64,000 bases of DNA from Candidatus Nomurabacteria bacterium (GTDB lineage: Bacteria; Patescibacteriota; Minisyncoccia; Phycocordibacterales; UBA9973): assembly GCA_026395915.1 (NCBI GenBank), contig JAPLXU010000013.1, forward strand, positions 16,428 through 80,427. Direction: 5' to 3'. Positions 1 to 27,935 of this stretch are shown piece by piece. The stretch's first letter is position 1. Every line of letters starts with the position of its first letter. The notes beneath the pieces are model-generated. The model did no database searches, had not been told where the DNA came from, and worked only from the letters and a program-made list of their open reading frames with translations. A program made the translations under genes and the position numbers.

Positions 1-791
1 CTGTTGTTTTCTTCATCTTCGGCCTTATCATCGGCAGTTTTTTGAATGTCGTTATTTTCCGGCTCAATACGAAGAGGTCTTTCGGTGGCAGGAGCGGATG
101 CATGTCTTGTTTGAATAAACTCTCTTGGTATGAGCTTATTCCGCTTTTCAGCTTTCTCGGTTTGAAAGGAAGGTGCCGAAATTGCAAAAGCAAAATTTCG
201 ATTCAGTATCCTTTGGTGGAATTTGTGACGGGCATCGTTTTTGCTTTTCTTTTTTTAAGACTTTTTGCTTCTGGTGGACAAAATAGCTTTTTAACTTTAC
301 CGTTTATTATAACTTACACTTATTATGCTATCACCTTTTCGCTTTTGATGGTTATCTCAGTTTACGATTTAAGACACAAAATAATTCCCGATTCACTTGC
401 TTTTATTTTTGGCGCACTGGCTTTTCTCGGTTTATTTTTCTTCCACGGCGGAAATTTTTACTGGCAGATGCCGTCAATTCTAGAATTTTTGTCGGGCTTT
501 TTAATTGCTTTACCTTTTGCTTTTTTTTGGTTTGTGTCGAGTGGCAGGTGGATGGGTCTTGGAGATGCAAAGCTCGCTCTCGGCATCGGCTGGTTGCTCG
601 GTTTTGTCGGCGCGCTTTCAGGTCTCGTCATAGCTTTTTGGTCTGGAGCACTAGTAGGGATTTGTCTTATTATTTTCAAGAGCAGTAAAACAAGTAGATT
701 AGGAATGAAAAGCGAAATTCCATTCGCTCCATTTCTGGTCTTCGGAGCCTTCCTGGTTTTTATTTTTGGATTGAATCTTTTTGGGCTATGA
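1..791 (+). CDS. pilD: Type IV prepilin leader peptidase (A24 family), 5'-partial
   Basis: ORF 42..791 continues in frame to the window start (..FGLIIGSFLNVVIFRLN, the typical PilD N-terminal helix). Has CxxC...CxxC (CMSC..CRNC) and a polytopic TM core with GLGDAKL. Confidence 0.8.
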   Translation, partial: VVFFIFGLIIGSFLNVVIFRLNTKRSFGGRSGCMSCLNKLSWYELIPLFSFLGLKGRCRNCKSKISIQYPLVEFVTGIVFAFLFLRLFASGGQNSFLTLPFIITYTYYAITFSLLMVISVYDLRHKIIPDSLAFIFGALAFLGLFFFHGGNFYWQMPSILEFLSGFLIALPFAFFWFVSSGRWMGLGDAKLALGIGWLLGFVGALSGLVIAFWSGALVGICLIIFKSSKTSRLGMKSEIPFAPFLVFGAFLVFIFGLNLFGL

Positions 792-1429
792 AAAAAATGA
801 TAAAAATACAAAAGAATAAAGGTATGACTTACATAGAACTGATTGTAGTTCTTTCTATTTTTGCGATAATGAGTTCGATAGTTATTTTTAATTATGAACA
901 GTTCCAAGCGAAAGTGGATGTCAAAAATCTGGCGAGCGATATTGCTTTGAAAATTGTCGAAGCGCAGAAGTCAGCTCTGGACGGACAATTACCATCACTC
1001 ACTCAGCAATCACAGATAGATTCAACGTGGAAACCTTCTTATGGAGTTTATTTTGATCTTTCAACTGACAGCAAAAGTTTTATTTATTTTACTGATCTTA
1101 ACAATATTAACAATAATCCTGGTACGCAAAATAGCCAGTATGACGGAACTTCTTCTTGTAATGGTGAATGCATAGATAAAATTCTAATAACTAGGAATGA
1201 TTCTATATCTCAGATAGCAAGTTGCACAGGTTCTCCCATTGTTTGCACTCCAATTACAAATCCTTTTTCTGTGTCTTTTTCGAGACCCAGCTCAACTGCT
1301 GTATTTTTTTCCAACACTACACAATTAGTATTAACGGGTGCTTCCTACATTCAAATTACAATCAAGTCGCCAAAAACAGCTTCCGCCACAATAAAAGTCT
1401 ATCCTTCAGGTAGGATTCAAGTAGACTAG
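788..1429 (+). CDS. Type IV pilin-like/pseudopilin (prepilin-type N-terminal cleavage/methylation motif)
   Basis: N-terminus KG|MTYIELIVVLSIFAIMSSIV after a basic leader. Immediately downstream of pilD. Confidence 0.6.
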   Translation: MKKMIKIQKNKGMTYIELIVVLSIFAIMSSIVIFNYEQFQAKVDVKNLASDIALKIVEAQKSALDGQLPSLTQQSQIDSTWKPSYGVYFDLSTDSKSFIYFTDLNNINNNPGTQNSQYDGTSSCNGECIDKILITRNDSISQIASCTGSPIVCTPITNPFSVSFSRPSSTAVFFSNTTQLVLTGASYIQITIKSPKTASATIKVYPSGRIQVD

Positions 1430-1458
1430 ATAATTGTAAAGTAAAAAGTTATAAAGAG

Positions 1459-2097
1459 ATGCAAAATAAAAACAACAACAACAGAAAAAGAGGATTCACA
1501 ATAATAGAAACGATGATTTCAGTTTCGCTTTTTTTAATTATTGTCATGGTTGGTATGGGGGCGCTTTTAAATGCCGACATGCTTCACAACAAATCAAAAA
1601 GCATGCGTTCCATTATGGATAATTTGAGTTTCATTATGGAAGACATGTCTAGAAATATAAGGACGGGATACAATTATAGGTGTTACGAGAGTGGTACTTG
1701 GCCAGGCATAAGTCAGCAGTCCGTTTTTAATACTCCTCAAAGTTGCATAAGTGGCGGAGTATTAGTTTTTGAAGAAGCTCATGGAAAAAATCTTTTAACT
1801 ACTCCACCTGATACAAATGCGACCGATCAATGGATATATAAAATTGAATCAACCGATGGGGGTCTCACTTTTGATATTAGCAAATCTGTTGATGGCGGAG
1901 TTACTTGGGTTCAAATGAATTCAGATGAAGTCAGTCTAAATGGGGTAAGCGGTTTTTCAGTAATAGGCGCAGAGGCGGGTGATAATCAGCAACCTTTTGT
2001 CACCATAAAGTTGGTCGGAAATATAAATTTGCAAAATAATATTCAAACACCTTTCTCTTTACAAACTTCAGTTTCGCAAAGACAGATAGATAGATGA
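1459..2097 (+). CDS. Type IV pilin-like protein (prepilin N-terminal motif)
   Basis: RG|FTIIETMISVSLFLIIVMVGM motif. Upstream motif AAGTTATAAAGA-ATG is shared with the next pilin gene. Confidence 0.65.
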   Translation: MQNKNNNNRKRGFTIIETMISVSLFLIIVMVGMGALLNADMLHNKSKSMRSIMDNLSFIMEDMSRNIRTGYNYRCYESGTWPGISQQSVFNTPQSCISGGVLVFEEAHGKNLLTTPPDTNATDQWIYKIESTDGGLTFDISKSVDGGVTWVQMNSDEVSLNGVSGFSVIGAEAGDNQQPFVTIKLVGNINLQNNIQTPFSLQTSVSQRQIDR

Positions 2098-2135
2098 GTA
2101 GTTATAAAGTTGAAAGTTTATAAAGTTATAAAGAA

Positions 2136-2579
2136 ATGAAATTATTTTTTAAAAAAGTTAATAAGACAAATAAGGGTTTCACTTTAGTAGAGATGCTTGT
2201 TGCCATTTCGATTTTTACTGTGTCATTGCTTGGCATAATGTCTGTTTTGGCATCTGGTGTTGCTAATACCACTTATGCTAAACAGAAAATGGTAGCTACT
2301 TATCTGGCGCAAGAAGGTATCGAATATGTGAGAAATATGCGAGATACCGAAGTTTTATATGGGTCTGGTAATATTATCGCTAGATGGAATAGATTTAAAA
2401 ATAATCCCAACATTGCTAGTACAATACCTGCTCCTTCTGATGCAAGTTTTACTCGCACAATCTCAATGACCAAAATAAATTCAGATGAGGTGCAAATTTT
2501 TTCGAAAGTTGAATGGACCCAAGGTTCCGGCTCTTACAGCATAACTTTTTCAGAAAATTTATTTAATTGGATAGAATAG
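2136..2579 (+). CDS. Type IV pilin-like protein (prepilin N-terminal motif)
   Basis: KG|FTLVEMLVAISIFTVSLLGI motif. 147 aa. Confidence 0.7.
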   Translation: MKLFFKKVNKTNKGFTLVEMLVAISIFTVSLLGIMSVLASGVANTTYAKQKMVATYLAQEGIEYVRNMRDTEVLYGSGNIIARWNRFKNNPNIASTIPAPSDASFTRTISMTKINSDEVQIFSKVEWTQGSGSYSITFSENLFNWIE

Positions 2580-2583
2580 AATT

Positions 2584-3114
2584 ATGGAGATAAAAAAATT
2601 ACAAAAGAATAAGGCCTGCCCGCATTACTACGCAAAGCGTTGTAGGCGGGGATTCGTAATACTTTTTGCAGTTACGTTGGCGGCTATTCTTTTGTCTATA
2701 GCTATCGGTGTTACGAATGTGGCTTTGAAAGAAATAAAATTTAGCACATCAGCCAAGGGTACCAACGACGCTTTTTTTGCTGCTGATACAGGTATTGAAT
2801 GCGCGCTAGTTAATGATAAATCAACTATAAACTCTTTTACACAATCTGGAGGTCCATCTTCTATACAATGCATTGGTTTGACAATTACTCTCACTAAAAC
2901 CGGCACTTCTTTAAATCCTGTTTGGGATTTTGTAGTTCCAAGTTTGGGAAGTTCAAGTCAGTCTTGCGCTAAAGTGAAAGTTACGAAAGATTTTTCGCTC
3001 AATACTGCTGTTGTTGTTTCAAAAGGATACAATAACGGAAGTGGTGGGGATCCTTCGAATTGGACGTGTTCTAATACCAATAATGTAGAACGAGAATTAC
3101 AGGTAAGCTATTAA
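2584..3114 (+). CDS. Minor pilin-like protein (PilX_N-like hydrophobic N-terminus)
   Basis: RRGFVILFAVTLAAILLSIAIGV hydrophobic segment. Last gene of the pilin cluster. Confidence 0.4.
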   Translation: MEIKKLQKNKACPHYYAKRCRRGFVILFAVTLAAILLSIAIGVTNVALKEIKFSTSAKGTNDAFFAADTGIECALVNDKSTINSFTQSGGPSSIQCIGLTITLTKTGTSLNPVWDFVVPSLGSSSQSCAKVKVTKDFSLNTAVVVSKGYNNGSGGDPSNWTCSNTNNVERELQVSY

Positions 3115-3121
3115 CTGCGGT

Positions 3122-5245
3122 ATGGATAAATCTAGCATTCAAAAAAGAATAACAAAACTGCGAAGCGAAATCGCGCGATTGAGAGACGCTTATCATACAA
3201 AAAATGCGCCTGACGTTACCGACGAGGTGTATGATTCTCTGACTCGCGAGCTGAAAGAGCTTTTGCAAAATTATCCAGAATTTGACGATTCAAATGCTCC
3301 GGAAAACAGAGTGGCAGGCAAACCGCTCGACAAATTCGTCAAAGTAAAACACGAAGTGAAAATGTTTTCAATCGGCAATGTGTTTTCAGCAGAAGAACTT
3401 TTTGCTTGGGAAAAAAGAAACTTAAAATTACTTCCCAATCTACAAAAACAATCTTTGGATTATTTTTGTGAGTTAAAATTCGACGGACTGGCTATATCGC
3501 TTATCTACGAGGATGGAAAATTTGCAAGAGGTGTGACGAGAGGAGATGGAGAAATCGGCGAAGACATTACCCAAAATTTGAAAACAATTAAAACGATTCC
3601 GCTCGCGTTCGAGGCGCCATATCCAGAAAGGATAGAGATTCGTGGCGAAGCGATTATGAAAAAAAATGTGTTGAAAAAACTCAATGAAGAAAACGAAAAA
3701 GAGGGGAAATTACTTTTTGCCAATTCGCGAAACGCTGCGGCGGGAAGCTTGCGCCAACTCGATCCAAAACTCGCAGAAGAAAGGCATCTAGATTTTTTTG
3801 CATATGAAATAGCGCAAATCAAAGGAGAAAAATGGCAGAAATATGTTGATAAACATTCTTTGAAACACGAATTACTAAAAAAATTAGGCTTTGCCGTTGA
3901 TGTGTACGCGAAGGAGGTTGTCGATTCAAAAGACATTTTAAATTTCATCGATAAGATTTCCAAAGTCCGCGACAGTTTAGATTTTGGCATTGATGGAGTG
4001 GTTATCAATGTGAATGAAACGAAGATTTTTGAAAATCTTGGAGTGGCGGGGAAAGACCCTCGCGGAATTATTGCTTTTAAGTATCCGGCTGAGAAGGCGA
4101 CTACCATCGTGAAAGATATTTTGATTAATGTTGGGCGTACTGGTGTCTTGACGCCACTTGCCGTTTTTGAACCGACTCTCGTAGCGGGTTCTAGAGTTTC
4201 AAAAGCAACCTTGCATAATATGGATCAAATAGAACGTTTAGATTTACGAATTGGTGATACTGTTGTTATAGAAAAAGCGGGGGATGTTATTCCGAAAGTT
4301 GTCGAAGTTTTGACACGTATGCGCACAGGCAAAGAGAAGAAATTTAAAATGCCGAAAACTTGCCCAGCTTGTAGGGGGAGCATAGAGAAAAAAGAAACAT
4401 CTGCGCAAATTCGCGAAATTTCCTCTGGCTTGACCCTTCCCGGAGTACCGGGTGGGACCCACACCATTCAGAAATCTCGCGAATTTGCGCAGATGTCTGT
4501 TGCTTACTATTGTTCAAATCCAAAATGTCCGGCAAAAAATGAAAGATATCTTGAACATTTTGTGTCTGTTTTTGAAATATACGAGCTCGGTCCGAAAATT
4601 TTGAGTCGATTTAAAGACGAAGGATTGATAACAGACGCGGCGGATATTTTTACGCTTGAAAAAGTTGACATCGCGCCCTTGGAGAGGTTCGGAGAAAAAT
4701 CAGCCGAGAATATTATAAAAGAAATAGAAAACAAAAAACATGTTTCCCTCACACGTTTTCTGTGGGCGCTTGGAATTTTGCATGTGGGTGAGGAGACTGC
4801 GCGAGACTTAGCAGAACATTTTGGCACTCTGGAAAAGTTAATATTCTCTGCAAGGCAAGACCTTGCAGAAGTAGATAATATCGAAAACATCGGTCCCGCG
4901 GTATCAAAAAGCCTTGTTGTTTTTTTTAATGATAAAAATAATTTAAACTTCATAAAAAAATTAAAAAAAAATGGTGTGGTTGTGGAAAAAGCAGAAGAAA
5001 ATCTAGCAAAGAGAAACGGGAAATTAAAAGGATTAAGTTTTGTTTTGACTGGTACGCTCCCAAATATGTCTCGAGAGATGGCAAAAAAGAAAATAATCTC
5101 TTTAGGAGGAAAAGTTGTGGGTTCAGTTTCAAAAAACACTTCCTATGTCGTAGCGGGGGTTGATCCGGGTTCCAAGCTAAAAAATGCGGAAAAATTAGGC
5201 GTTAAAGTGCTAGATGAAAAAAAGTTCCAAAATATGATAGGATAG
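3122..5245 (+). CDS. ligA: NAD-dependent DNA ligase LigA (carries an in-frame insertion in the Zn finger)
   Basis: Adenylation motif KxDG (ELKFDGLAI), OB domain, Zn finger CPAC....CSNPKC, HhH region and C-terminal BRCT. 707 aa. Confidence 0.9.
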   Translation: MDKSSIQKRITKLRSEIARLRDAYHTKNAPDVTDEVYDSLTRELKELLQNYPEFDDSNAPENRVAGKPLDKFVKVKHEVKMFSIGNVFSAEELFAWEKRNLKLLPNLQKQSLDYFCELKFDGLAISLIYEDGKFARGVTRGDGEIGEDITQNLKTIKTIPLAFEAPYPERIEIRGEAIMKKNVLKKLNEENEKEGKLLFANSRNAAAGSLRQLDPKLAEERHLDFFAYEIAQIKGEKWQKYVDKHSLKHELLKKLGFAVDVYAKEVVDSKDILNFIDKISKVRDSLDFGIDGVVINVNETKIFENLGVAGKDPRGIIAFKYPAEKATTIVKDILINVGRTGVLTPLAVFEPTLVAGSRVSKATLHNMDQIERLDLRIGDTVVIEKAGDVIPKVVEVLTRMRTGKEKKFKMPKTCPACRGSIEKKETSAQIREISSGLTLPGVPGGTHTIQKSREFAQMSVAYYCSNPKCPAKNERYLEHFVSVFEIYELGPKILSRFKDEGLITDAADIFTLEKVDIAPLERFGEKSAENIIKEIENKKHVSLTRFLWALGILHVGEETARDLAEHFGTLEKLIFSARQDLAEVDNIENIGPAVSKSLVVFFNDKNNLNFIKKLKKNGVVVEKAEENLAKRNGKLKGLSFVLTGTLPNMSREMAKKKIISLGGKVVGSVSKNTSYVVAGVDPGSKLKNAEKLGVKVLDEKKFQNMIG
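4398..4495. repeat. Palindromic element (25-bp inverted repeats, one mismatch, flanking a 48-bp core with an inner hairpin) inserted in frame in ligA
   Basis: catctgcgcaaattcgcgaaatttc (4398-4422) and gaaatctcgcgaatttgcgcagatg (4471-4495) are reverse complements. Inner hairpin is cccggagtaccggg. The segment separates the CxxC and C..C halves of the LigA Zn finger by about 41 aa instead of about 14. Confidence 0.6.
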
Positions 5246-5262
5246 TTTATTGCAGATGATAA

Positions 5263-5349
5263 GGAGGGTTCGCATAGTGGTCTAGTGCGCATCCCTGGAA
5301 AGGATGTATGTCCGAAAGGGCATCGAGAGTTCGAATCTCTCACCCTCCG
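5263..5349 (+). tRNA. tRNA-Ser (anticodon GGA)
   Basis: Hand-folded cloverleaf: acceptor GGAGGGT/ACCCTCC, anticodon loop CUGGAAA, long variable arm, T-arm GAGAG-TTCGAATC-TCTC. Confidence 0.8.
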
Positions 5350-5387
5350 CACGGCCATTTTGGCTGTTTAAAAAATAAATAAAATTT

Positions 5388-5460
5388 GCCATCCTAGCTC
5401 AGTTGGTAGAGCACGTCTTTCGTAAAGACGGGGTCCCGAGTTCGATCCTCGGGGATGGCT
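5388..5460 (+). tRNA. tRNA-Thr (anticodon CGU)
   Basis: Acceptor GCCATCC/GGATGGC, D-arm GCTC-AGTTGGTA-GAGC, anticodon stem-loop CGTCT-TTCGTAA-AGACG, T-arm CCGAG-TTCGATC-CTCGG. Confidence 0.8.
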
Positions 5461-5461
5461 C

Positions 5462-6343
5462 ATGGATAAAGAAAGCATACAGCAAAAAATAAATGAGTTA
5501 GAGACGCAGATGCTCGCGCCGGAATTTTGGAATGATAAAAACAAAGCGCAAACGATCATCAAAGAAATTGCCGATTTGAAAAGTTCGCTTTCGGGCGTCG
5601 GTAAGTTTGATAAGGGTAACGCTATTGTGACTATTTTTTCCGGCGCAGGCGGGGACGACGCGGAAGATTTTTCGGCTATGCTTTACAGAATGTATAGGAA
5701 ATTTTTTGAAAAAAAAGGCTGGGGAATGGAGCTTATTCATTCGAACGAGAACGATCATGGAGGTTACAGAAATATAACTTTTGAAATATCCGGTAAAAAT
5801 GTCTATGGAACTTTGAAAAACGAATCAGGAGTGCATCGCTTGGTCCGCATTTCGCCTTTCAATGCCAAACAGCTTCGTCACACTTCTTTTTCGATGGTGG
5901 AAGTTATACCGAAATTTGAAAAGACTAACAGCGCGGACATAGAATTGCCGGAAAAAGACATAGAAATTTCTATTGCTCGTTCTGGTGGTCCCGGAGGACA
6001 GAATGTGAACAAGAGAGAAACAGCGGTGAGAATTGTGCATAAACTTACAGGGCTTTCCGTTCACGTGACGTCAGAAAGATCTCAAGCGCAGAATAAAGAA
6101 AAAGCGATAGATATTTTGAAGGGTAAACTTTTTAAAAGAAAGGAAGAAGAAAAAATCGCGAGAGAAAAAGGAATGTACATAAGCAAGACAACTTCCATCG
6201 AGTGGGGGAATCAGATTCGCTCGTATGTCCTTCATCCGTATAAAATGGTAAAAGACCACAGGACAGATACCGAGACTTCCAACGTTGACGCAGTTTTAAA
6301 CGGCGATTTGGATATTTTTATTGAAGCAGAGAAAAATTTGTAA
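5462..6343 (+). CDS. prfB: Peptide chain release factor 2 (short form, no programmed frameshift)
   Basis: GGQ motif ([11 protein letters not shown]). RF2-type SPF motif ([15 protein letters not shown]). 293 aa with truncated domain 1. ATG starts 1 nt after tRNA-Thr. Confidence 0.75.
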
Positions 6344-6359
6344 AAGCATTTAAAAAGCA

Positions 6360-7280
6360 ATGATATTTTCTATATTGATTACAATAATCGGCCTTTCGCT
6401 TTTTGAAACGGTTTCGTCTGTTGATAATGCGATTATCAATGCGGAAGTGCTTTCTACGATGGGCGCGCGGGCTCGGCGCTGGTTTCTTACTTGGGGGATA
6501 CTGGTTGCGGTTTTTGTTGTCCGGGGACTTCTGCCTTTCGTAATAATTTGGGCTTTCAATAAGTCGCTCAATCCGATTCAGATCTTGTCGGCCACATGGT
6601 CGAACGATCCTATAGTTTTGGAATCTATAGAGAAATCGGCTCCGATTTTGCTCGTGGCGGGTGGAATTTTTCTTTTATTTTTATTTCTGCATTGGCTTTT
6701 TCTTGAAGATAAACATCTTGGGTTACCGAGAACGGAGAAATTTTTTATGTCGAAAGGCGTTTGGTTCTATGCGACGGTTTCCATCTTACTCGCAGTTATT
6801 TCATGGTTTGCTCTAAAAGAAAATAGCCTGATGGGTTTTGGAGCTGTTGTTGGCTCAAGCATATTTTTTATTACTCACGGTTTTAAACAGAATGCAGAAG
6901 CACAAGAGAAGAGACTGTCCAATAGTGGGCGTTCCGATTTGAGCAAACTTTTATTTTTGGAAATAATTGATAGCACTTTTTCTGTCGACGGGGTTCTAGG
7001 CGCTTTCGCTTTTACTCTTTCGGTGCCTTTGATTTTGCTCGGGAATGGTCTAGGCGCTTTTATAGTACGAGGTCTAACAATTCGGAACATTGAGCGTATT
7101 AAAAAATATGTTTATTTAAAAAATGGGGCGATGTATTCCATTTTGGTTCTTGGTATAATCATGATATTGCACAGTTTTGGTTTCCGTGTTCCCGAATATG
7201 CTTCTCCGCTCGCCACCTTTTCCATAATCGGATTTTTCTTTTGGAAGTCAAAAATACATCTTAAATTAAATTTTAAATAA
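6360..7280 (+). CDS. TerC/DUF475-family integral membrane protein
   Basis: Polytopic membrane protein with SVDNAIINA and SVDGVLGAFAF-like repeated motifs. Confidence 0.45.
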   Translation: MIFSILITIIGLSLFETVSSVDNAIINAEVLSTMGARARRWFLTWGILVAVFVVRGLLPFVIIWAFNKSLNPIQILSATWSNDPIVLESIEKSAPILLVAGGIFLLFLFLHWLFLEDKHLGLPRTEKFFMSKGVWFYATVSILLAVISWFALKENSLMGFGAVVGSSIFFITHGFKQNAEAQEKRLSNSGRSDLSKLLFLEIIDSTFSVDGVLGAFAFTLSVPLILLGNGLGAFIVRGLTIRNIERIKKYVYLKNGAMYSILVLGIIMILHSFGFRVPEYASPLATFSIIGFFFWKSKIHLKLNFK

Positions 7281-10251: not shown

Positions 10252-10377
10252 AATCCAAGCAAAGCGAACAAGATTATGGCGATAATCAAAATCAAATAAA
10301 TCCTCTTTGTTTTCTGGTCCATCAGTGAATTGTATCAAAATCTTGTAATTTTGTCTTTTTTTCGTTAAGATAACGAT

Positions 10378-11088
10378 ATGAGCACCGAAAATAAAAAAGG
10401 CACAGAGCATCCGCTTTCTATTGTTATAAACGAAGCAGTAAAGATCTTTACTGATTTGGGTTTTGAAGTTGCCAGCGGTCCAGAGCTCGAAGATGTTTGG
10501 CATAATTTCGATGCCTTGAATGTTCCCAAAGATCATCCAGCGCGTGATATGCAGGACACTTTTTACATCAAAGGAGAAGATGGAAAAGTTTTGAGAACTC
10601 ACACCTCGAATGTGCAGATTAGATATATGGAAAACTTTGTGAAGTCCAACAGGAAACCACCGTTTGCGGTCATTTCAGTTGGTAAATGTTTTCGCAATGA
10701 GGCAACCGACGCGACTCATGAGATGCAATTCTATCAGATCGAGGGGTTGATGGTTGGAGAAGATATTTCGATGGCAAATTTGAAAGGAGTGTTATCTCAT
10801 TTTTATAAAAAAATGCTTGGCGAGGACACGAATCTTCGTTTTCGTCCGAGTTTCTTCCCATTTACTGAGCCCTCGATAGAATTTGATTTGAAATATAAAG
10901 GAAAATGGATTGAGATGGGCGGGGCGGGCATGGTGCATCCGAAAGTTTTGGAAAATTGCGGGATTGATTCAAAAAAATACCAAGGTTTTGCTTTCGGTCC
11001 GGGACTCGAGAGGCTCATGGTTATAAAATACGTAATGCCGGACATCAGACCGGCTTATCAAGGCGACTTAAGGTTTAATCAGTTTTAA
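10378..11088 (+). CDS. pheS: Phenylalanine--tRNA ligase alpha subunit (short, catalytic core only)
   Basis: Class II motifs: HPARDMQDTFY, FRNEATDATHEMQFYQIEG, GGAGMVHP..GFAFGPGLERL. Confidence 0.85.
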   Translation: MSTENKKGTEHPLSIVINEAVKIFTDLGFEVASGPELEDVWHNFDALNVPKDHPARDMQDTFYIKGEDGKVLRTHTSNVQIRYMENFVKSNRKPPFAVISVGKCFRNEATDATHEMQFYQIEGLMVGEDISMANLKGVLSHFYKKMLGEDTNLRFRPSFFPFTEPSIEFDLKYKGKWIEMGGAGMVHPKVLENCGIDSKKYQGFAFGPGLERLMVIKYVMPDIRPAYQGDLRFNQF

Positions 11089-11091
11089 TTT

Positions 11092-11484
11092 ATGGAATAT
11101 GTGAAAGATTTTGATGCATGGAATACAAAGAAAAAAATAATTGATCAAAAAGAAACGTCTGATCATGTATTTTTTGCTGAACGTGAAATCTGGTGGGGCT
11201 CGTTAGGATTAAACATTGGATATGAACAAGACGGAAAGAATGAAAATTTTGAGCGTCCTTTGCTTTTGATAAAAAAATTCAATAGAGATATTGTTTTAGC
11301 AGTTCCATTAACAAGTGTTGCAAAGAATAATAAGTTTCATCATAAGTTGAAATCAAGCGGTTCTTTTGTCATACTTTCGCAGATGAGACTTATTAGCACG
11401 AAAAGATTACTTCGTAGAGTGGAGAAAATAACAGATTCGGAATTTGAAGAAATTATTAGTAAAATTAAGAGTTTGTTCCCATAA
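11092..11484 (+). CDS. PemK/MazF-family protein (putative endoribonuclease toxin homolog, orphan)
   Basis: EIWWGSLGLNIGYEQDGKNENFERPLLLIKKFNRDIVLAVPLTS ... SFVILSQMRLISTKRL aligns to the MazF/EndoA core (GSEQ.G.RPvlvi...vaPiTs; ..vl.dqiRtidk.RL). No upstream antitoxin ORF. Confidence 0.6.
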   Translation: MEYVKDFDAWNTKKKIIDQKETSDHVFFAEREIWWGSLGLNIGYEQDGKNENFERPLLLIKKFNRDIVLAVPLTSVAKNNKFHHKLKSSGSFVILSQMRLISTKRLLRRVEKITDSEFEEIISKIKSLFP

Positions 11485-11487
11485 AAG

Positions 11488-11520
11488 CGAAACCCCGCTT
11501 TCGCGGGGAATCTCGGGGGC
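11488..11520. repeat. GC-rich hairpin repeat (family shared with 46041-46071 and 46129-46160)
   Basis: cgaaaccccgctttcgcggggaatctcgggggc. Stem ccccgc/gcgggg. Three near-identical copies in the window, all downstream of MazF-like genes. Confidence 0.55.
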
Positions 11521-11607
11521 CTAACGACCATTTACCTAAGTAGTGTATACTAGACGAAAGGTAAAGTCAAGCAAAAAAAATATTTATAAATAATATATTC
11601 ATAAATT

Positions 11608-11886
11608 ATGGAACTCGAATTAATAGTAATTATTGGATTTATAACGACAGTTTTAACTATCTTGGTAAAAATTGTTGGTTTTCCAGACCAAATAAAGAAA
11701 AATTATCAAAGAAAATCCACTGAAGGAATTTCTACGGCTTTTTATGTACTTTCTTTTATAACATATATTTTTTGGACTATACATGGAATTTTGCAAAATG
11801 ATTGGGTAGTATATTTTGGTCAAGGTCTGGGAATACTAACTACTGGTATCATTGTATTTCAAATATTCTTTTATCATAAAAAATAA
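11608..11886 (+). CDS. SemiSWEET / PQ-loop family small membrane transporter
   Basis: 92 aa, 3 predicted TM helices. PQ-loop-like segment GFPDQIKKNYQRKSTEGIS between TM1 and TM2. Confidence 0.55.
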   Translation: MELELIVIIGFITTVLTILVKIVGFPDQIKKNYQRKSTEGISTAFYVLSFITYIFWTIHGILQNDWVVYFGQGLGILTTGIIVFQIFFYHKK

Positions 11887-11895
11887 TTTTTTGAC

Positions 11896-13716
11896 ATGAA
11901 AATTTCTTACAATTGGCTCAAATCATATATACCAGAAGCTCCCACGCCTGAAAAACTCGCAGAAGTTTTTACTTTTCATATTTGTGAAGTCGAAAGCTTT
12001 GATAGATTACCAAATGGCGACGTTGTTTTTGATTTGAAAATATTGCCGAACCGCGCGCATGATTTGCTTTCTCACCAAGGCATTGCTCGAGAACTTGCTT
12101 CGCTTCTTGATATAAAATTCGTTGATCCGACGGCAAAATATAAAATTCCAAAATCAAAACCGACAAAACTAAAAATAGAAATAAAAAGCAATAAGTGTCG
12201 CCGTTATATAGGCAGAATTATTAGGGGAATAAAAATTGGTCCATCTCCAGAATGGGTAGTAAAACATTTAGAATCCATAGGCCAGAGAAGTATAAATAAT
12301 ATAGTTGATGCCGCAAATCTCGTAATGTTTGATTGTGGTCAACCGACGCATGCTTTCGATTTGGATAAAATACCGGAAGAAAAAATCATTGTAAAGAATG
12401 CTACGGATTTAGAAAATGCTTCCATTACAATGGAAACTCTTGATGGAAAAGTTTGCAAACTGTCGAAAAACGATCTGGTCATAGCTTCTGTCAGCAATAC
12501 ATTAGCTATAGCAGGAATTAAGGGTGGTAAAAAAGCAGAGGTTCATAATGAAACCACAAATATAATTCTCGAATGCGCCAATTTCGATCCTGTGAGTGTT
12601 AGAAAAACTGCGCAAGCCTTGAATATCATTACCGACGCAAAAAAGCGTTTTGAGAATGATTTATCTCCTGAATTAGCCGAGTACGGAATGATGGAACTCT
12701 CAGCGCTTATTTTTGAAATGTGTCCAGATGCGATTTTTGAAGATGTCATTGACGTTTATCCTAATAAGGCTGAACAGAGAAAAGTTTTTGTTTCAGTCGA
12801 TTATATCAACAAGCGTCTCGGCTCGGATTTTTCAAAAAAAGAAATTGAGAATGTTTGGAAAAAATTAAATTTTAAATATGTAGAGAAAAATGGAGAATTT
12901 GAAATCGTGATTCCGTTTTCGAGGATTGATATAAACGATCCATGCGATTTGACGGAGGATGTAATAAGCGTTTTGGGGTACGATAAAATCAAAGAAAAGT
13001 TGCCAGAAACAAAAACTAAATCAAAAATGAATGAAACCTTTGCCAAAATGCTTTGGGCTAGAAACAAACTGCTCGATGATGGATATAGTGAGGTGATGAC
13101 ATACGTTTTCAGAGACAATGGTGAATTGGAAGTATTGGCTTCTGCCTCGGATAAAAAATTTTTACGCACGAATTTAACTGATGGGCTCAAGGAAAGTATT
13201 AAATTGAATCAAACAAACGCGTCGCTTCTTGGAATTGACAAGGTTAGGGTTTTTGAGATCGGGACCATTTTCAAAAAGAAAGGCGAGGAGATGCATGTTA
13301 CGTACGGAGACAAAAAAAATGTTGCCGAAGTCTCTTTGGAAGATTTTTGTAAAGGGCAGATTTTGCAAGGACAGTCCTTAAGAGAGTTTCCCCAAGGACT
13401 GTCCTTGGAAAAATCTAAGGAAACTAAGTTCAAAATGTGGTCCCTGTTTCCCTTTATTGCGCGCGACGTAGCTGTTTGGGTTCCGGAAAATGTAAAAAGC
13501 ACTGAAGTCGCTCAAATAATAAAAGAAAACATGGGAGAAATGGTGGTCCGAGGTCCGGAACTTTTTGATGAATTCAAAAAAGATGGAAAAACTTCTTATG
13601 CTTTCAGATTGGTTTTCCAATCTTACGACAGGACTCTCACCGACGCCGAGGTGAATGAAATTATGACGAAAATAACTGATAAAATAAAAGAAAATGTAGG
13701 TTGGCAGGTGAGGTAG
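11896..13716 (+). CDS. pheT: Phenylalanine--tRNA ligase beta subunit (short form)
   Basis: N-terminus MKISYNWLKSYIPE. B3/B4, B5 and C-terminal anticodon-binding-like regions. 606 aa. Confidence 0.85.
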   Translation: MKISYNWLKSYIPEAPTPEKLAEVFTFHICEVESFDRLPNGDVVFDLKILPNRAHDLLSHQGIARELASLLDIKFVDPTAKYKIPKSKPTKLKIEIKSNKCRRYIGRIIRGIKIGPSPEWVVKHLESIGQRSINNIVDAANLVMFDCGQPTHAFDLDKIPEEKIIVKNATDLENASITMETLDGKVCKLSKNDLVIASVSNTLAIAGIKGGKKAEVHNETTNIILECANFDPVSVRKTAQALNIITDAKKRFENDLSPELAEYGMMELSALIFEMCPDAIFEDVIDVYPNKAEQRKVFVSVDYINKRLGSDFSKKEIENVWKKLNFKYVEKNGEFEIVIPFSRIDINDPCDLTEDVISVLGYDKIKEKLPETKTKSKMNETFAKMLWARNKLLDDGYSEVMTYVFRDNGELEVLASASDKKFLRTNLTDGLKESIKLNQTNASLLGIDKVRVFEIGTIFKKKGEEMHVTYGDKKNVAEVSLEDFCKGQILQGQSLREFPQGLSLEKSKETKFKMWSLFPFIARDVAVWVPENVKSTEVAQIIKENMGEMVVRGPELFDEFKKDGKTSYAFRLVFQSYDRTLTDAEVNEIMTKITDKIKENVGWQVR

Positions 13717-21439: not shown

Positions 21440-22135
21440 ATGATCCAATTTTCAAATTTTGAGAAAAAAACAAAAATAATTTTTAAAAATAAAAATCTGC
21501 TAGAGCAGGCTTTTATTCACCGCTCATATATAAACGAAAATCCGGGAACCAAATTGTCGCACAATGAGAGGCTTGAGTTTTTGGGCGACGCCGTGCTAGA
21601 ACTCGTCGTGACAGATTTTCTTTTCAAAAAATATCCGAATTATGCGGAAGGAGAACTGACCGCCTTGCGTTCGGCTCTGGTTAACGCGGTTATTATTTCT
21701 GAAATTGCGACCGGTCTCGGTATGAATGATTTTTTGCTCTTATCAAAAGGTGAGACAAAAGATAACGGCAAAGCAAGACAGTATATTTTGGCAAACACGT
21801 ACGAAGCGTATATCGGCGCCTTGTATCTCGACCAAGGCATCGAGGCAGTGGATAAATTCGTGCACAAATCGCTCTTGCCGAAGACCGAGGAAATAGTTTC
21901 AAAAAAACTTTGGCGTGACGCGAAGTCTCTAGTTCAGGAAAAGGCGCAAGAATTCGTGAACGTCACGCCCGCTTACAAAGTTTTGCACGAGTCTGGCCCC
22001 GACCATGACAAGCATTTTACAGTTGGCATTTATTTCGGAGGCAATTTGATTGCGGAAGGCAAGGGTAAATCAAAGCAAGAAGCGGAGCAAAAAGCCGCCG
22101 AAGCGGCGCTCAAAACAAAAAATTGGCTAGATTAA
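21440..22135 (+). CDS. rnc: Ribonuclease III
   Basis: Signature ERLEFLGDAVLELVVTDFLF and a C-terminal dsRBD (…GKGKSKQEAEQKAAEAAL). Confidence 0.9.
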   Translation: MIQFSNFEKKTKIIFKNKNLLEQAFIHRSYINENPGTKLSHNERLEFLGDAVLELVVTDFLFKKYPNYAEGELTALRSALVNAVIISEIATGLGMNDFLLLSKGETKDNGKARQYILANTYEAYIGALYLDQGIEAVDKFVHKSLLPKTEEIVSKKLWRDAKSLVQEKAQEFVNVTPAYKVLHESGPDHDKHFTVGIYFGGNLIAEGKGKSKQEAEQKAAEAALKTKNWLD

Positions 22136-25663: not shown

Positions 25664-27934
25664 ATGCGACTCAAGACACTTGAAATAAATGGCTTTAAAT
25701 CTTTTGCCCAGAAAACCGTTTTGGAATTCAATAACAGCATCGTCTGCGTGGTTGGCCCGAATGGTTCTGGAAAATCAAATGTTGTAGAAGCTCTCCGTTA
25801 TGTTTTGGGCGAGCAATCTATGAAGTCAATGCGCGGAAAGTCGGGTTTAGACCTTATTTTTAAAGGCTCAAAAAGCTTGTCCAAAGGTTCACGCGCCGGT
25901 GTCACAATCTATTTTGACAATTCCGACAAGGTTTTCAAACTTTCAAATAGCGAAGGAGGGGAGATAAATTTGAATTATGAAACTGTCAGCATTTCTCGCG
26001 AAGTTTATTCTGATGGATTGAACAAGTACATTTTGAATGGCTCGGAAGTTAGGTTGAAAGATATTCACAATCTCTTGGCGTCGGTCAATATCGGTTCCTC
26101 AGGACATCACATCATTTCTCAAGGTGAGGCGGATAGAATTTTAAACGCAAACATGGTGGACAGACGTGAGATGGTGGAAGACGCGCTCGGTCTCAAAATT
26201 TATCAATACAAAATAAAAGAAAGCGAGAGGAAACTCGAGCGAACGGAAGAAAACATGAAAGAGGTGACTCTTCAACGAAGAGAAAACGCTCCGCATTTGA
26301 ATTTTTTAAAAAAACAAGTAGAGAAGTTTGAGAAAGCAAAAGAAATGCAGGCCGACTTGGCTATTTTATATAAAGAATATTTAAGCAAGGAAAGTGTTTA
26401 TCTTGAAAATGAAAAAAACACGCTATCTCTTCAAAAAGATAAACTAAAAAGTGAACTTGAAAACGTTGCAAGCAAAATTTCAGCTACTGAAGATAACAAT
26501 TCTGCCGAGGGTAATAAAAAAATAAACGCCTTGCGTGTCGTTGAAGGCAATTTGAATTCTATTCGCGGAATGAAATCTGAAATGGAGCGCAAGCTCGGCA
26601 GAATAGAAGGAATGATCGAAATGGAAACTCGCAGGGCGGAACAAAATATCGCCGTTGTTGAAATTTCACAAGAAGAAATTAAAGCCGTTATCGCCGACAT
26701 CAACAATTCTATCGATGAAGCTATTTCCAAGAATGACGTGAGCGAAGTTAAACCAATTTTGGAGCGTATCAAAAGTATCTTGAAGAAATTCTCTTCGCAA
26801 AATACAGAAAAGTCCGGCGAAAATATCGAAATAAAAAATCTTAAACAAAGCCAGCAGGAGATTCTCGAAGAGATGAAGGGGATAGAGAGCAAGGAAAAAG
26901 ATATTGCAAAATCAGCAGAACTGCTCAAACAAGAAATAAACAAAGAGATGGAAGCCTTGCGGGATCTCGAACGAGAGAAATTCACTTGGAAGGTCAGGCA
27001 ACAAGAGTTGTCTTCTGCTTTAGAACTTACAGCGATCAAAGAAGGGAATCTAAAAAGCCGAACCGAAGCTTTTCTTAATGAGATAAAAGAAGGTGTGGCG
27101 CTGATCGGGCAAGAGATTTTGGCTTACAAAGATGAAGTTGCGGAAGCCTTGCTTCCGCCAGCTGGCGGAAGCAAGGCTTCCGCAACAACTCAAGAAGAAT
27201 TGAAACGCAAAATTGAAAGGATAAAAATAAAATTGGAAGATGCCGGCCTCGGCAGTGGCGCGGAAGTCCTGAAAGAATTCAAAGAAGTTTCGGAGAGGGA
27301 TGGATTTCTGGCTAAAGAAATGGAAGATTTAGCGAAAAGCATAGAGTCATTGGAAAAATTAATCGCAGATCTCAAAGAAAAAATAGATTTGGAATTCAAA
27401 GAAGGCGTTAGAAAAATCAATGTGGAATTTCAGGAATTTTTCTCTCTAATGTTCGGCGGGGGAACAGGTTCTCTTTCTATCGTGGTTGAAAATAAGAAGA
27501 AAAGGAAAAACGAGTTTGAAGAGGATGAATCTGTCGACGTCGAAAGCTCTGGCGAGTCGAAGGAAGAAATCGTGTTTGAAAAGGGGATAGAAATAAATGT
27601 TTCTCTTCCGCACAAGAAAGTCAAAGAGCTCAATGCTTTTTCAGGGGGAGAAAGATCGCTCACTTCCATCGCGCTTCTTTTTGCCATGTCGCAAGTCAAT
27701 CCGCCGCCATTTCTCGTTTTGGACGAGACCGATGCGGCGCTCGACGAAGCAAACTCTCGCAAATATGGAGACATGCTTGAGAAGTTGTCCAAACATTCAC
27801 AGCTCATCGTCGTCACCCACAATCGTGAGACGATGTCTCGAGCGGGTGTGCTTTATGGAGTGACGATAGGAAGCAACGGAGCCTCAAAACTTCTTTCTGT
27901 GAAATTCGACGAAGCAACTGCTATCGCGAAATAA
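25664..27934 (+). CDS. smc: SMC-family ATPase (short SMC-like chromosome segregation protein)
   Basis: N-terminal Walker A GPNGSGKSN. Long coiled coil. C-terminal signature FSGGERSLTSIALLFAM and Walker B/D-loop FLVLDETDAALD. 756 aa. Confidence 0.7.
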   Translation: MRLKTLEINGFKSFAQKTVLEFNNSIVCVVGPNGSGKSNVVEALRYVLGEQSMKSMRGKSGLDLIFKGSKSLSKGSRAGVTIYFDNSDKVFKLSNSEGGEINLNYETVSISREVYSDGLNKYILNGSEVRLKDIHNLLASVNIGSSGHHIISQGEADRILNANMVDRREMVEDALGLKIYQYKIKESERKLERTEENMKEVTLQRRENAPHLNFLKKQVEKFEKAKEMQADLAILYKEYLSKESVYLENEKNTLSLQKDKLKSELENVASKISATEDNNSAEGNKKINALRVVEGNLNSIRGMKSEMERKLGRIEGMIEMETRRAEQNIAVVEISQEEIKAVIADINNSIDEAISKNDVSEVKPILERIKSILKKFSSQNTEKSGENIEIKNLKQSQQEILEEMKGIESKEKDIAKSAELLKQEINKEMEALRDLEREKFTWKVRQQELSSALELTAIKEGNLKSRTEAFLNEIKEGVALIGQEILAYKDEVAEALLPPAGGSKASATTQEELKRKIERIKIKLEDAGLGSGAEVLKEFKEVSERDGFLAKEMEDLAKSIESLEKLIADLKEKIDLEFKEGVRKINVEFQEFFSLMFGGGTGSLSIVVENKKKRKNEFEEDESVDVESSGESKEEIVFEKGIEINVSLPHKKVKELNAFSGGERSLTSIALLFAMSQVNPPPFLVLDETDAALDEANSRKYGDMLEKLSKHSQLIVVTHNRETMSRAGVLYGVTIGSNGASKLLSVKFDEATAIAK

Positions 27935-27935
27935 G

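Follow-up and report, generated by a model that had tools for sequence, protein, structure and literature searches.

An in-frame palindrome in the zinc-finger region of a Nomurabacterial DNA ligase gene: probably a dispersed selfish element tolerated as a translated loop

The ligA locus and its hairpin

The DNA analysed here, called the window below, is a stretch of 64,000 nucleotides from a Candidatus Nomurabacteria metagenome-assembled genome (MAG). Its features are collected in Table 1. One of its genes is ligA, whose product has the Pfam domains DNA_ligase_aden, OB, HHH_2 and BRCT and is 100% identical to the LigA of a Candidatus Nomurabacteria MAG at NCBI. The C4 zinc finger of NAD-dependent DNA ligases (PF03119) has four conserved cysteines with a short spacer, of about 13-18 aa, between the second and the third. 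In the window LigA this spacer (C417 to C464) measures 46 aa, rather than the approximately 41 aa estimated in an earlier reading of the sequence alone. The Pfam model of the zinc-binding domain (ZBD) matches residues 460-471 only, below its cutoff, because an insert splits the domain.

Table 1. Features of the window discussed in the text (a dot marks features without an assigned strand)
Feature	Position	Strand	Basis or remark
ligA, NAD-dependent DNA ligase	3122-5245	+	ORF, 707 aa; host of the hairpin element
First Cys pair of the C4 zinc finger (C414, C417)	4361-4372	+	invariant columns, 54-sequence alignment A1
Whole hairpin element, outer arms and core, 100 nt	4397-4496	.	inverted-repeat search, shuffles, RNA fold
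Left outer arm, site-specific	4397-4414	.	pairing reaches outward to 4392; arm comparison between hosts
Family-A inner core, ~64 nt, imperfect palindrome	4415-4478	+	common to 72 metagenomic copies
Central GC hairpin of the core, CCCGG-AGTA-CCGGG	4439-4452	.	paired in every copy
Right outer arm, site-specific	4479-4496	.	pairing reaches to 4501
Second Cys pair of the C4 zinc finger (C464, C469)	4511-4528	+	invariant columns, 54-sequence alignment A1
Family F palindrome in pheT (ORF 11896-13716)	13361-13412	.	doublet of the REP unit CAAGGAC-N-GTCCTTG
Near-perfect 50-56-nt palindrome, coreless, in an SMC-like gene (25664-27934)	27134-27189	.	inverted-repeat scan
REP-like hairpin GAACTACGGAGGC-GTT-GCCTCCGTAGTTC	27935-27963	.	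flanks the RAYT-like gene 27972-28607
RAYT-like HUH/Y1 transposase gene, 211 aa	27972-28607	-	Pfam Y1_Tnp, motifs, synteny
Second copy of the REP-like hairpin GAACTACGGAGGC-GTT-GCCTCCGTAGTTC	28632-28652	.	opposite side of the RAYT-like gene 27972-28607
Hairpin in the RNB-domain ribonuclease gene rnr (29670-31736, minus strand)	30955-31047	.	family B/D core, own arms
Second RAYT-like paralog, 49% identity	61795-62451	-	hairpins AAAYCTGCAAGGCAAGACCTTGCAGRTTT at 61768-61796 and 62471-62499

Nucleotides 4397-4495 are read as 33 residues (426-458, TSAQIREISSGLTLPGVPGGTHTIQKSREFAQM), and the ligA reading frame is unbroken across them. The hairpin found here is the strongest inverted repeat within the window: its arms (4397-4422/4471-4496) pair over 26 nt with one mismatch and may be extended to 31 nt at 90% (4392-4422/4471-4501), and no comparable arm pair occurred in any shuffle of the window. 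As RNA the element folds with -56.8 kcal/mol versus -27.0 +/- 3.8 in shuffles (z=-7.9). The sequence-only reading had described a frame-neutral element of about 98 bp, with 25-bp arms, a single mismatch and an internal hairpin. Its place, the mismatch, the internal hairpin and the intact frame are all borne out, while the lengths come to 26 nt for the arms and 100 nt for the hairpin. Likewise, the approximately 34 residues thought to be added are 33 translated ones, or a net gain of 28-33 aa when insert-free relatives, with spacers of 13-18 aa, are taken as reference.

AlphaFold2 gives a pLDDT below 50 for exactly residues 426-458, the sole low-confidence segment between the two Cys-bearing strands. 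C414 and C417 adjoin the modelled strand 420-425, C464 and C469 come after the modelled strand 458-464, and all four cysteines, invariant in our alignment, are placed on a beta-hairpin. The model keeps the zinc ribbon intact and shows the insert at its tip as a disordered loop, in line with the early placement of the insert between the Cys pairs, and LigA presumably stays active with it.

The element is composed of a core and of outer arms. The core, which we call family A, has A/T-rich self-complementary termini (consensus AAGAATTCTT; in the ligA element GAAATTTC...GAAATCTC) and a GC-rich, asymmetric centre, where swaps in the GC hairpin such as CCCCG...CGGGG are compensated. The arms belong to the site. 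A search of the window with the 26-nt arm or a 15-nt sub-arm returned only the two arms themselves, which rules out the arms as the repeated unit. Indeed no second copy of the arm is to be expected, since each site has arms of its own and repetition is limited to the central ~64 nt; the repeated unit is this core and not the 25-bp inverted repeat that the sequence-only reading had suggested as a search target. The right outer arm encodes REFAQMS, which resembles ELPAQKS of the basal host spacer, and it probably derives from host sequence. Rfam returned nothing relevant for the element at either gathering or permissive thresholds; a weak match to a plant miRNA precursor reflects merely a long hairpin. 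An exhaustive search of the 38-aa insert peptide against representative proteins gave 8 weak multi-stretch matches in long proteins.

The window has four in-frame palindromes: besides ligA, they lie in pheT, smc and rnr. The pheT palindrome is 97.5% identical over 40 nt to the insert at the ligA zinc site of L021, and the core of the rnr hairpin is 95% identical over 42 nt to the ligA zinc-site inserts of L003 and L080.

Distribution of the element

Among the 120 closest LigA orthologs, the spacer between the second and the third cysteine is at least 26 aa long in 76 and at most 15 aa long in only 5. The long spacers represent at least 11 unrelated hairpin families and nearly all of them fold strongly (z -4 to -9), whereas short spacers do not. 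Some sister lineages carry the same element at the same ligA site, even where their ligA DNA is only 71-73% identical; others have a different family or no insert. Aligned to its orthologs, the window LigA thus has insert-free relatives as well as relatives with other hairpins in the same position. The frame is kept across the insertion site in all 81 ligA loci, and independent ENA, Logan, JGI and NCBI assemblies contain the same element with the same length at the same site.

The core is not confined to ligA. Its 72 metagenomic copies are spread over no fewer than 10 host genes, and a single contig may have as many as 3; the hosts, most of which were named by Pfam, include LeuRS, UvrA, UvrC, UvrD-like, HolB, RluA, an FAD oxidase and a methyltransferase. 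Every copy lies inside an ORF and is free of stops (62 of the 72 in one frame), and the core is always bracketed by outer arms that are site-specific and almost perfectly complementary. Outer-arm identity is 0.30 between host genes versus 0.62 within one host, and the core has an identity of 0.73 between hosts. Core-containing hairpins are in coding phase 1 in 35 of 38 cases, and so is the ligA element. Given that the core is found in unrelated genes and that other orthologs have short spacers or different hairpin families, the element is an inserted and dispersed one, rather than a lineage-specific protein loop. The recurrence in frame in these genes, several times in some contigs, supports the original description of an in-frame palindromic insertion akin to Rickettsia palindromic elements (RPE) or MITEs.

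The sites themselves say something of the insertion. Insertion into pre-existing palindromes was rejected, as those orthologous FAD-oxidase sites that are truly empty show no palindrome. A direct repeat of at least 4 nt at the hairpin boundaries, as a target-site duplication would leave, was observed once in 46 copies versus 0 in the control, and the A2 copies have only a possible TTC duplication. Cut-and-paste at EcoRI sites, given GAATTC at both core ends, was dropped as an idea, since many copies have AAATTT or GATTTC instead. Cores also change in place: flipped cores were found within the same arms, where they encode a different peptide, and L071 and L063 have deletion remnants of the element. 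Scans of viral contigs for the family A and family E cores gave no match, and phages do not appear to be the vectors of these two families.

RAYT-like genes and their hairpins

The 211-aa RAYT-like protein has visible HUH and Tyr motifs and matches Pfam Y1_Tnp with 26.7 bits (cutoff 23). Its best NCBIfam match is REP-associated tyrosine transposase, at 31.7 bits and thus below the cutoff of 80, and a PDB sequence search with it gave no significant match. The gene is single-locus with synteny kept in 8 contigs, and the best 120 of its 7,894 homologs are 75-86% identical. Each of the two paralogs in the window has on both sides a GC-rich hairpin of its own, which ends in GTAG/CTAC; the homologs in L048, L054 and L154-L160 also have the same hairpin on both sides.

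What connects these genes with in-frame palindromes is family F, whose unit is a REP motif, so that here an in-frame family is built from a RAYT-associated REP unit. The family-A core is unlike every RAYT-flanking hairpin seen and has no GTAG/CTAC motif, and the REP1 hairpin is barely dispersed in the 2 Mb examined. No cognate autonomous IS with matching ends was found among the annotated window ORFs (20/52). We regard the RAYT-like protein as a candidate for the enzyme that acts in trans on family A. A short k-mer likeness between the outer arms of ligA and rnr and the REP2 hairpins was set aside as too short and post hoc.

Presentation of the hypothesis

In our opinion, the ligA segment is best explained as a small non-autonomous selfish palindromic DNA element of the RPE kind, tolerated as a translated loop and kept as a hairpin at the DNA level. 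We give this explanation a probability of about 0.78.

The element would have entered the ligA segment for the exposed loop that separates the two Cys pairs of the zinc ribbon. The dispersed unit is the ~64-nt family-A palindrome, and a site-specific, nearly perfect inverted repeat of 15-25 nt around it, which may arise by inverted copying of the host flank, completes a hairpin of ~100 nt. A RAYT-type HUH enzyme, of which the window encodes two, possibly mobilises the element. The ribosome would read through it, and LigA would tolerate the resulting floppy loop of 33 residues rich in Gly, Pro, Ser and Thr. Selection would pass only those insertions that keep the frame, lack stops, sit in phase 1 (the least constraining) and fall in permissive loops, which would be the reason why many families are found at the same few ligA sites. 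After insertion, the hairpin stays paired as DNA: changes in the arms are compensated, probably through intrastrand template switching or arm conversion, and the core would be refreshed or constrained. Recombination between the arms can flip the element, and it can also be replaced or partly deleted, in which case a few extra residues remain.

Certain observations count against a selfish element, among them the lack of target-site duplications of at least 4 nt and the dissimilarity of the family-A core to the RAYT-flanking hairpins. No intergenic copy was seen among ~30 distinct sites; for selfish repeats this is unusual, but it is only marginally significant. Further, ligA shows a roughly 15-fold enrichment in these hairpins over its neighbouring genes, a figure in which ascertainment is uncontrolled.

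Alternative explanations

The most serious alternative is a domesticated or functional nucleic-acid element, selected by the host whatever its selfish origin. As DNA, for instance, it might be a hairpin or cruciform to which a host protein binds; as mRNA, it might form a structure that governs the expression of ligA or the folding of the protein during translation. We consider it unlikely, but not for lack of conservation. The core is equally conserved at all three codon positions, therefore the constraint is at the level of nucleotides and not of protein. At third codon positions, orthologous copies have an identity of 0.77-0.95 over the core and of 0.68-0.77 over the arms, above the 0.51-0.53 of the host flanks. 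Such synonymous conservation in excess of the host genes calls for ongoing conversion, re-invasion or a host-level function, and it counts against a purely decaying selfish insert. Compensatory changes are pervasive as well. Each position of the outer stem is occupied by 3-6 types of Watson-Crick pair, 20 of 36 pairs are compensated among 7 orthologs, the outer-arm changes relative to the orthologs L152 and L153 are compensated, and comparison with independent assemblies reveals compensated blocks. The persistence of the element in diverged sister lineages and the presence of an RNase III gene in the window would also suit a function.

On the contrary, a function does not sit well with the use of one site by many unrelated families, with the many orthologs that have none, with cores that are flipped or partly deleted, or with the lack of any Rfam family match. 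The strong mRNA hairpin that the sequence-only reading had envisaged gains no support as a functional fold: sense-strand mismatches comprise 31 G:T and 46 A:C, hence no G:T excess, and the stems contain hardly any G:T pairs. Paralogs on the same contig tend to share a subtype (0.83 vs 0.71), which better fits conversion or re-invasion.

A local template switch, that is, an inverted duplication made de novo without any mobile element, is highly improbable as the origin of the whole. It would account for arms that are unique to each site, some of which run into conserved host codons (Y-F-D in L097, KLL in LeuRS), and it is the mechanism that PMC6649704 proposes for coding palindromes in hairworm mitochondria. 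However, no local event can yield a central ~64 nt that is shared by at least 10 genes and by many genomes, so that template switching is refuted as a complete explanation. The arms and their upkeep may well be due to it; the core is not.

We find it extremely hard to believe that the zinc finger has in these 33 residues an adaptive loop specific to the lineage, with the palindrome incidental. Many LigA and other proteins do share the conserved peptide motif SSGLTLPGVPGGTHT, the frame is kept always, and sister lineages do have long conserved spacers. Yet the absence of copies elsewhere, which had been named together with such spacers as the mark of a lineage-specific loop, is not what is found. 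The loop is predicted by AlphaFold2 to be disordered, the equal conservation of the three codon positions points to nucleotides, and unrelated families replace one another at the site. The occurrence of the same DNA in unrelated proteins, and in flipped form with a different peptide, effectively refutes the adaptive loop.

Finally, an assembly chimera, which strong hairpins can cause, or an untranslated intervening sequence (an intron, or a bypass as in T4 gene 60 and the palindromic byp elements of yeast mitochondria that PMC6649704 cites) has practically no chance of being correct, given the agreement of the independent assemblies, the intact frame of 81/81 ligA loci and 72/72 stop-free family-A copies within ORFs, and a strong phase-1 bias that is expected only if the hairpins are translated.

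Relation to known elements

The selfish element that we prefer invites comparison with several known systems. RPEs (Ogata et al. 2000/2002), as summarised in PMC10969869, are palindromic repeats of ~100-150 bp, in several families with tens of copies in a small reduced genome; that summary describes them as often in frame in unrelated housekeeping genes, mostly in one reading frame, as translated into surface segments compatible with the fold, and as being without a known transposase. Our element is similar in its stable 100-nt hairpin, in being one of several families in a reduced genome, and in its dispersed copies in frame in unrelated genes, which are mostly in one reading frame and would be translated into extra surface segments that suit the fold. 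The host, however, belongs to the CPR/Patescibacteria and not to the Alphaproteobacteria, and the two are analogues at most, likened by description. RPE copies lose repeat identity over time, according to the passage of PMC6649704 that mentions them, whereas hairpins here stay paired, with a core conserved beyond host synonymous sites and no decay. Moreover, only the central ~64 nt are shared here, the long arms being site-specific, and two features are prominent: the flipping, and the recurrence of many families in one and the same loop.

REPs are extragenic by definition, and an imperfect GC-rich palindrome is the kind of substrate that HUH enzymes recognise. The likeness to the REP/REPIN-RAYT system is that the window and related genomes encode conserved, syntenic HUH/Y1 proteins with cognate flanking hairpins, that family F consists of two REP units, the arrangement of a REPIN, and that the family-A core is an imperfect GC-rich palindrome. 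On the other side, all clustered copies here are inside ORFs and are read as coding, the RAYT match is below the NCBIfam cutoff, and the dispersed repeat is the RAYT-flanking REP only for family F, family A being different.

With MITEs, of which intragenic in-frame fusions are known (PMC10969869), the element shares a small size, a non-coding origin, multiple copies and inverted-repeat bounds. The conserved part of a MITE, however, is its terminal inverted repeat, while here the copies have the inner A/T-rich termini in common and the outermost inverted repeats of 15-25 nt differ at every site. In addition, no target-site duplication was found at the 46 copies.

The mitochondrial genes of Nematomorpha contain long, near-perfect, locus-specific coding inverted repeats with both arms translated (Mikhailov et al. 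2019, PMC6649704); phase-1 pairing predominates, the palindromes are gained and lost between species, and template switching or arm conversion was proposed for their origin and upkeep, with no function necessary. The ligA arms are similar, since they have one mismatch in 26 nt, are site-specific, are both translated and share the phase-1 bias, and hairpins are gained and lost here too. The Nematomorpha repeats, however, lie across conserved regions of the proteins and lack a mobile core in common, whereas here a conserved dispersed core is found at the centre, in variable loops of a bacterial chromosome rather than in mitochondrial DNA.

Implications of the hypothesis

To our knowledge, in-frame selfish palindromes have so far been essentially a curiosity of Rickettsia. 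Here the same phenomenon is met, and densely so, in a lineage that is entirely different although its genomes are reduced as well. The ligA element is one member of a large, apparently undescribed population that colonises loops of housekeeping proteins across the lineage of this tiny CPR (Nomurabacteria) bacterium. Metagenomes offer hundreds of natural replicates, and since filled, empty, flipped and partly deleted states can be compared at one loop, open questions become testable. It helps that the mobile core is clearly separable from arms made at the site, that the reading-phase rule is strong, and that a conserved RAYT-like enzyme and its cognate hairpins are present in the same genomes.

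We may speculate further, tentatively and with somewhat more doubt than confidence, that the translated palindromic elements of Patescibacteria (Nomurabacteria/Paceibacteria) maintain themselves and form a class not described before. Their conserved mobile core, on which the domesticated RAYT-type HUH enzymes of the lineage may act, would land in permissive loops of essential genes and seed an inverted copy of the adjacent host coding sequence, giving a long perfect hairpin that is then kept and renewed as DNA. Such elements would be REPIN-like, intragenic and in frame, and a third way, besides RPEs and hairworm mitochondrial palindromes, for a selfish hairpin and coding to coexist; they would also be a major source of length variation in CPR housekeeping proteins.

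There are practical consequences too. By their position, the inserts would mark loops of essential enzymes that tolerate insertions of ~30 residues. They split Pfam domain matches, as with the zinc-binding domain of LigA that falls under its threshold, inflate protein length, and may be starting points of assembly breaks in the genomes of CPR bacteria. Another effect is spurious antisense ORFs; the antisense strand of the ligA element does encode the peptide TSAQIREIS, as had been read from the palindrome at the outset.

The hairpin inside ligA

As far as its sequence and distribution tell, the insert in the zinc-finger loop of the window's LigA is a selfish, translated palindromic element. 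The sequence-only reading had proposed an in-frame insertion resembling a Rickettsia palindromic element (RPE) or a MITE, and this is supported and considerably extended by dispersed families, a shared core and a patchy distribution of long spacers.

A Candidatus Nomurabacteria MAG encodes a protein identical to the window's LigA. As had been noted, the arms of the hairpin (4397-4422 and 4471-4496) match as reverse complements at all but one position, and the ORF is continuous through them; pairing goes on to 4392-4422/4471-4501 at 90%. Such an arm pair is absent from every shuffle of the window, the fold (-56.8 kcal/mol, z=-7.9) is strong, and the hairpin ranks top among the inverted repeats of the 64 kb. 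Rfam searches with it found no relevant family. Antisense translation indeed yields the peptide TSAQIREIS on that strand too, and the distance between the second and third Cys of the zinc finger, earlier put at about 41, is corrected to 46 aa (C417-C464). In an AlphaFold2 model (54-sequence alignment, mean pLDDT 78.8) pLDDT falls below 50 at residues 426-458, which is exactly the insert; it sits between strands 420-425 and 458-464, the bearers of the Cys pairs.

Features of the window: genes, palindromes and spurious ORFs
Feature	Position	Strand	Remarks
Prepilin peptidase (A24) gene and pilin-like ORFs	42-3114		immediately upstream of ligA; several of the ORFs have N-termini like those of type IV pilins (e.g. 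GFTLVEMLVA)
ligA, NAD-dependent DNA ligase	3122-5245	+	707 aa, ORF with all usual domains
Spurious antisense ORF	4225-4467	-	80 aa, across hairpin
Two tRNA genes	5263-5349, 5388-5460		downstream of ligA
MazF/PemK-like toxin gene	11092-11484	+	between pheS and pheT
pheT palindrome	13361-13412		in frame; family F, REP-unit doublet
RNase III gene	21440-22135	+
SMC-like gene palindrome	27134-27189		in frame; near-perfect, 50 nt, without core
REP-like hairpins CTACGGAGGC-NNN-GCCTCCGTAG	27935-27963, 28632-28652		bracket first RAYT-like gene
RAYT-like HUH/Y1 transposase gene	27972-28607	-	Pfam Y1_Tnp 26.7 versus cutoff 23 bits
Spurious antisense ORF	30912-31364	+	150 aa, across hairpin
RNB ribonuclease gene (rnr) hairpin	30955-31047		in frame; family B/D core, 21-nt perfect arms
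Hairpin pair AAAYCTGCAAGGCAAGACCTTGCAGRTTT	61768-61796, 62471-62499		belongs to second RAYT-like gene
Second RAYT-like gene	61795-62451	-	paralog, 49% identity

Other copies and their architecture

The question of further copies, raised from the sequence alone, is answered by BLAST and a metagenome scan, both of which place the element families elsewhere. In all fetched DNA, BLAST finds the families of the ligA inserts at further places, including two window hairpins and a second ligA site in other genomes. Terminators aside, the four strongest hairpins of the window are all in frame within large housekeeping genes: ligA, pheT, the SMC-like gene and the RNB ribonuclease gene. When 94 strong hairpins from 1.49 Mb were clustered, one architecture emerged: a conserved asymmetric core between A/T-rich self-complementary inner stems, with outermost arms (15-25 nt) that differ from copy to copy yet pair almost perfectly. 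None of the clustered families was seen in intergenic DNA.

For family A, to which the ligA element belongs, a degenerate core pattern scanned against metagenomes gave 72 copies, up to three per contig and every one (72/72) within an ORF; 62 share a single frame, 7 are flipped and the remaining 3 use a different frame. Hosts include LeuRS, HolB, UvrA, UvrC, a UvrD-like helicase, RluA, a methyltransferase, and, at two sites each, FAD oxidase and LigA. Among 46 unique copies, identity of the inner element (~64 nt) is 0.73 between different hosts and 0.81 within one host, versus 0.30 and 0.62 for the outer arms, and inner conservation lacks codon periodicity. Positions of the outer stem show 3-6 Watson-Crick pair types and are 72-98% paired, with G:T almost absent. 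Single genes for LeuRS, UvrD-like helicase, UvrC and FAD oxidase (metagenome loci L087, L084, L104, L106) hold at least two elements belonging to different families, for example the peptides RTVLKKVSPRTVLK, GNGLAGLGTRRTE and ALPARGLRHG beside a family-A insert.

LigA spacers

The ligA spacer is a hot spot and not a private loop. In the 120 nearest LigA proteins (66-77% identity) the Cys2-Cys3 spacer spans 13 to 59 aa, reaching at least 26 aa in 76 and 15 aa or less in only 5, and the long spacers form at least 11 unrelated peptide families. All 80 ligA loci fetched from species-representative genomes (L001-L080) are in frame; nearly all long spacers are strong hairpins (z about -4 to -9), whereas those of 13-20 aa are not, and two genomes have a tandem pair of elements at the site. 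On a LigA tree with inserts masked the distribution is extremely patchy: sisters of the window's LigA have spacers of 18 and 13 aa or an element of another family. Four hot spots were found in these loci (coordinates about 10300-11900), after aa ~107, ~166 and ~236 and in the zinc loop. Strong hairpins number 41 in 171 kb of ligA versus 19 in 1.31 Mb of other ORFs, an enrichment of ~15-fold, or ~5-fold by the most conservative count.

Upkeep of the hairpin

The comparative data indicate that the elements are maintained rather than decaying. The two closest family-A LigA sequences (P0006 and P0002), 71-73% identical in ligA DNA, were assembled independently (ENA and Logan), and in both the element occupies this site at equal length. 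Differences in the arms are compensated blocks, e.g. CAAATTCGCG/CGCGAATTTG versus CCGGTTCGCG/CGCGAACCGG, and comparison of seven orthologs reveals, in 20 of 36 predicted pairs, a double change that keeps the pairing. Hence an assembly chimera, a concern of the sequence-only reading, is excluded, and vertical persistence of a maintained hairpin is shown.

Codon-position identity was compared for 31 pairs of orthologs covering six host genes, and a smaller set agrees. Third positions are 0.51-0.53 identical in host flanks (first/second 0.81-0.90), 0.77-0.95 in the inner element (0.94-0.95) and 0.68-0.77 in the outer arms (0.71-0.84). The high third-position values in the element relative to flanks imply constraint or homogenisation at the nucleotide level. 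An mRNA hairpin had also been considered possible; G:T is not in excess, and with 31 G:T versus 46 A:C sense-strand mismatches there is no pointer to mRNA structure. The complementarity is DNA-like. Should the long hairpins ever undergo RNA processing, the window's RNase III would matter.

Same-contig paralogs share a subtype at 0.83 versus 0.71 (n=8), and the zinc-site copy in locus L014 is A2, that genome's own subtype, at a site that elsewhere has A1. This small sample favours within-genome spread or conversion.

Translation and reading phase

Every ligA locus and every family-A copy is free of stops and keeps the reading frame. First codon positions pair with each other (phase 1) in 35 of 38 core-containing strong ORF hairpins, ligA and rnr included; since not every copy is independent of the rest, the nominal p=1e-13 makes the evidence look stronger than it is. 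For coding palindromes, phase 1 is the arrangement that constrains least (PMC6649704). The elements thus appear to be translated and filtered by coding constraints. Since they are palindromic and stop-free, antisense ORFs extend spuriously across them, a likely cause of false gene calls.

Flips, remnants and the origin of the arms

In locus L017 the family-A core is inverted between similar arms, "families" B and D are a single core in two orientations, and flipped copies occur likewise in HolB and RluA. From the element of L002 and L005, just the outer halves of both arms are left in L071 and the left arm alone in L063; given these, many LigA spacers of 18-23 aa are probably deletion remnants.

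It could be supposed that existing hairpins are the target, but empty FAD-oxidase sites (5 aa between anchors) contain no palindrome, which rules this out. In some copies the 3' arm continues into conserved host codons (Y-F-D in L097, KLL of KLL(H/N)KTIKKV in LeuRS), 3' arm peptides at the zinc site (REFAQMS, REPASQS, SSLAQSS) are similar to the basal spacer ELPAQ(K/S)S, and the net gain, 26 aa in FAD oxidase and 28 aa in LigA relative to 18-aa spacers, fits core plus one arm. Taken together, this suggests that one of the two arms is host sequence, of which the other is an inverted copy. At the elements, no duplication of the target site of at least 4 nt was found; TTC flanks A2 copies on both sides in two host genes. 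In the FAD-oxidase gene of L144 the left end of a family-A copy is partly duplicated directly downstream (AAGAATTTTCCCGGCTTTA; peptide KNFPGF twice), which suggests replication slippage or template switching at such hairpins.

Relation to known systems

By behaviour, the closest analogue of the ligA element is the RPE, present in frame many times over in a reduced genome's housekeeping genes (PMC10969869); its repeat identity is reported to be lost over time (PMC6649704). Unlike RPEs, the elements here have site-specific arms, maintained pairing and recurrent hot spots. Their arms act as coding palindromes do in hairworm mitochondria, where arm conversion or template switching has been put forward (PMC6649704). 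The RAYT (REP-associated tyrosine transposase) context resembles REP/REPIN systems, which are however extragenic. A palindromic element of this kind seems new to the literature of this lineage: searches of the literature outside subscription journals turned up no account of in-frame palindromic elements, MITEs or RAYT/REPINs from CPR/Patescibacteria, and there may be prior work.

RAYT-like genes

Annotation of part of the window revealed a RAYT-like gene, whose product is a candidate for the mobilising enzyme, with HUH (CLMPNHFHILV) and Tyr (YSYIHLNP) motifs; its best NCBIfam match, REP-associated tyrosine transposase, reaches 31.7 bits where the cutoff is 80. Homologs of the protein number 7,894, with the top 120 at 75-86% identity, and six homologs in other loci are likewise bracketed by their own hairpins. 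The order RNase R - PGA_cap - RAYT - SMC is kept in other genomes together with the flanking hairpins, a behaviour known for domesticated RAYTs. Beside some homologs of the gene, the flanking hairpin ..GCAAGGAC-N-GTCCTTGC.. is the unit whose doublets form in-frame family F, located in the window's pheT insert and at ligA sites. Because no cognate RAYT was found for family A, its mobilisation by a RAYT is something we infer.

The outer 6-8 nt of the hairpin stems of the second RAYT-like gene recur in the outer arms of rnr (AAACCTGC) and ligA (ATCTGC), which may be coincidence. In locus L048, a RAYT-like gene (5746-6366) has three tandem intergenic units of ~80-90 nt (5382-5715) directly upstream, each with the hairpin TAGCAAGAACCGTTCTTGCTA at its boundaries.
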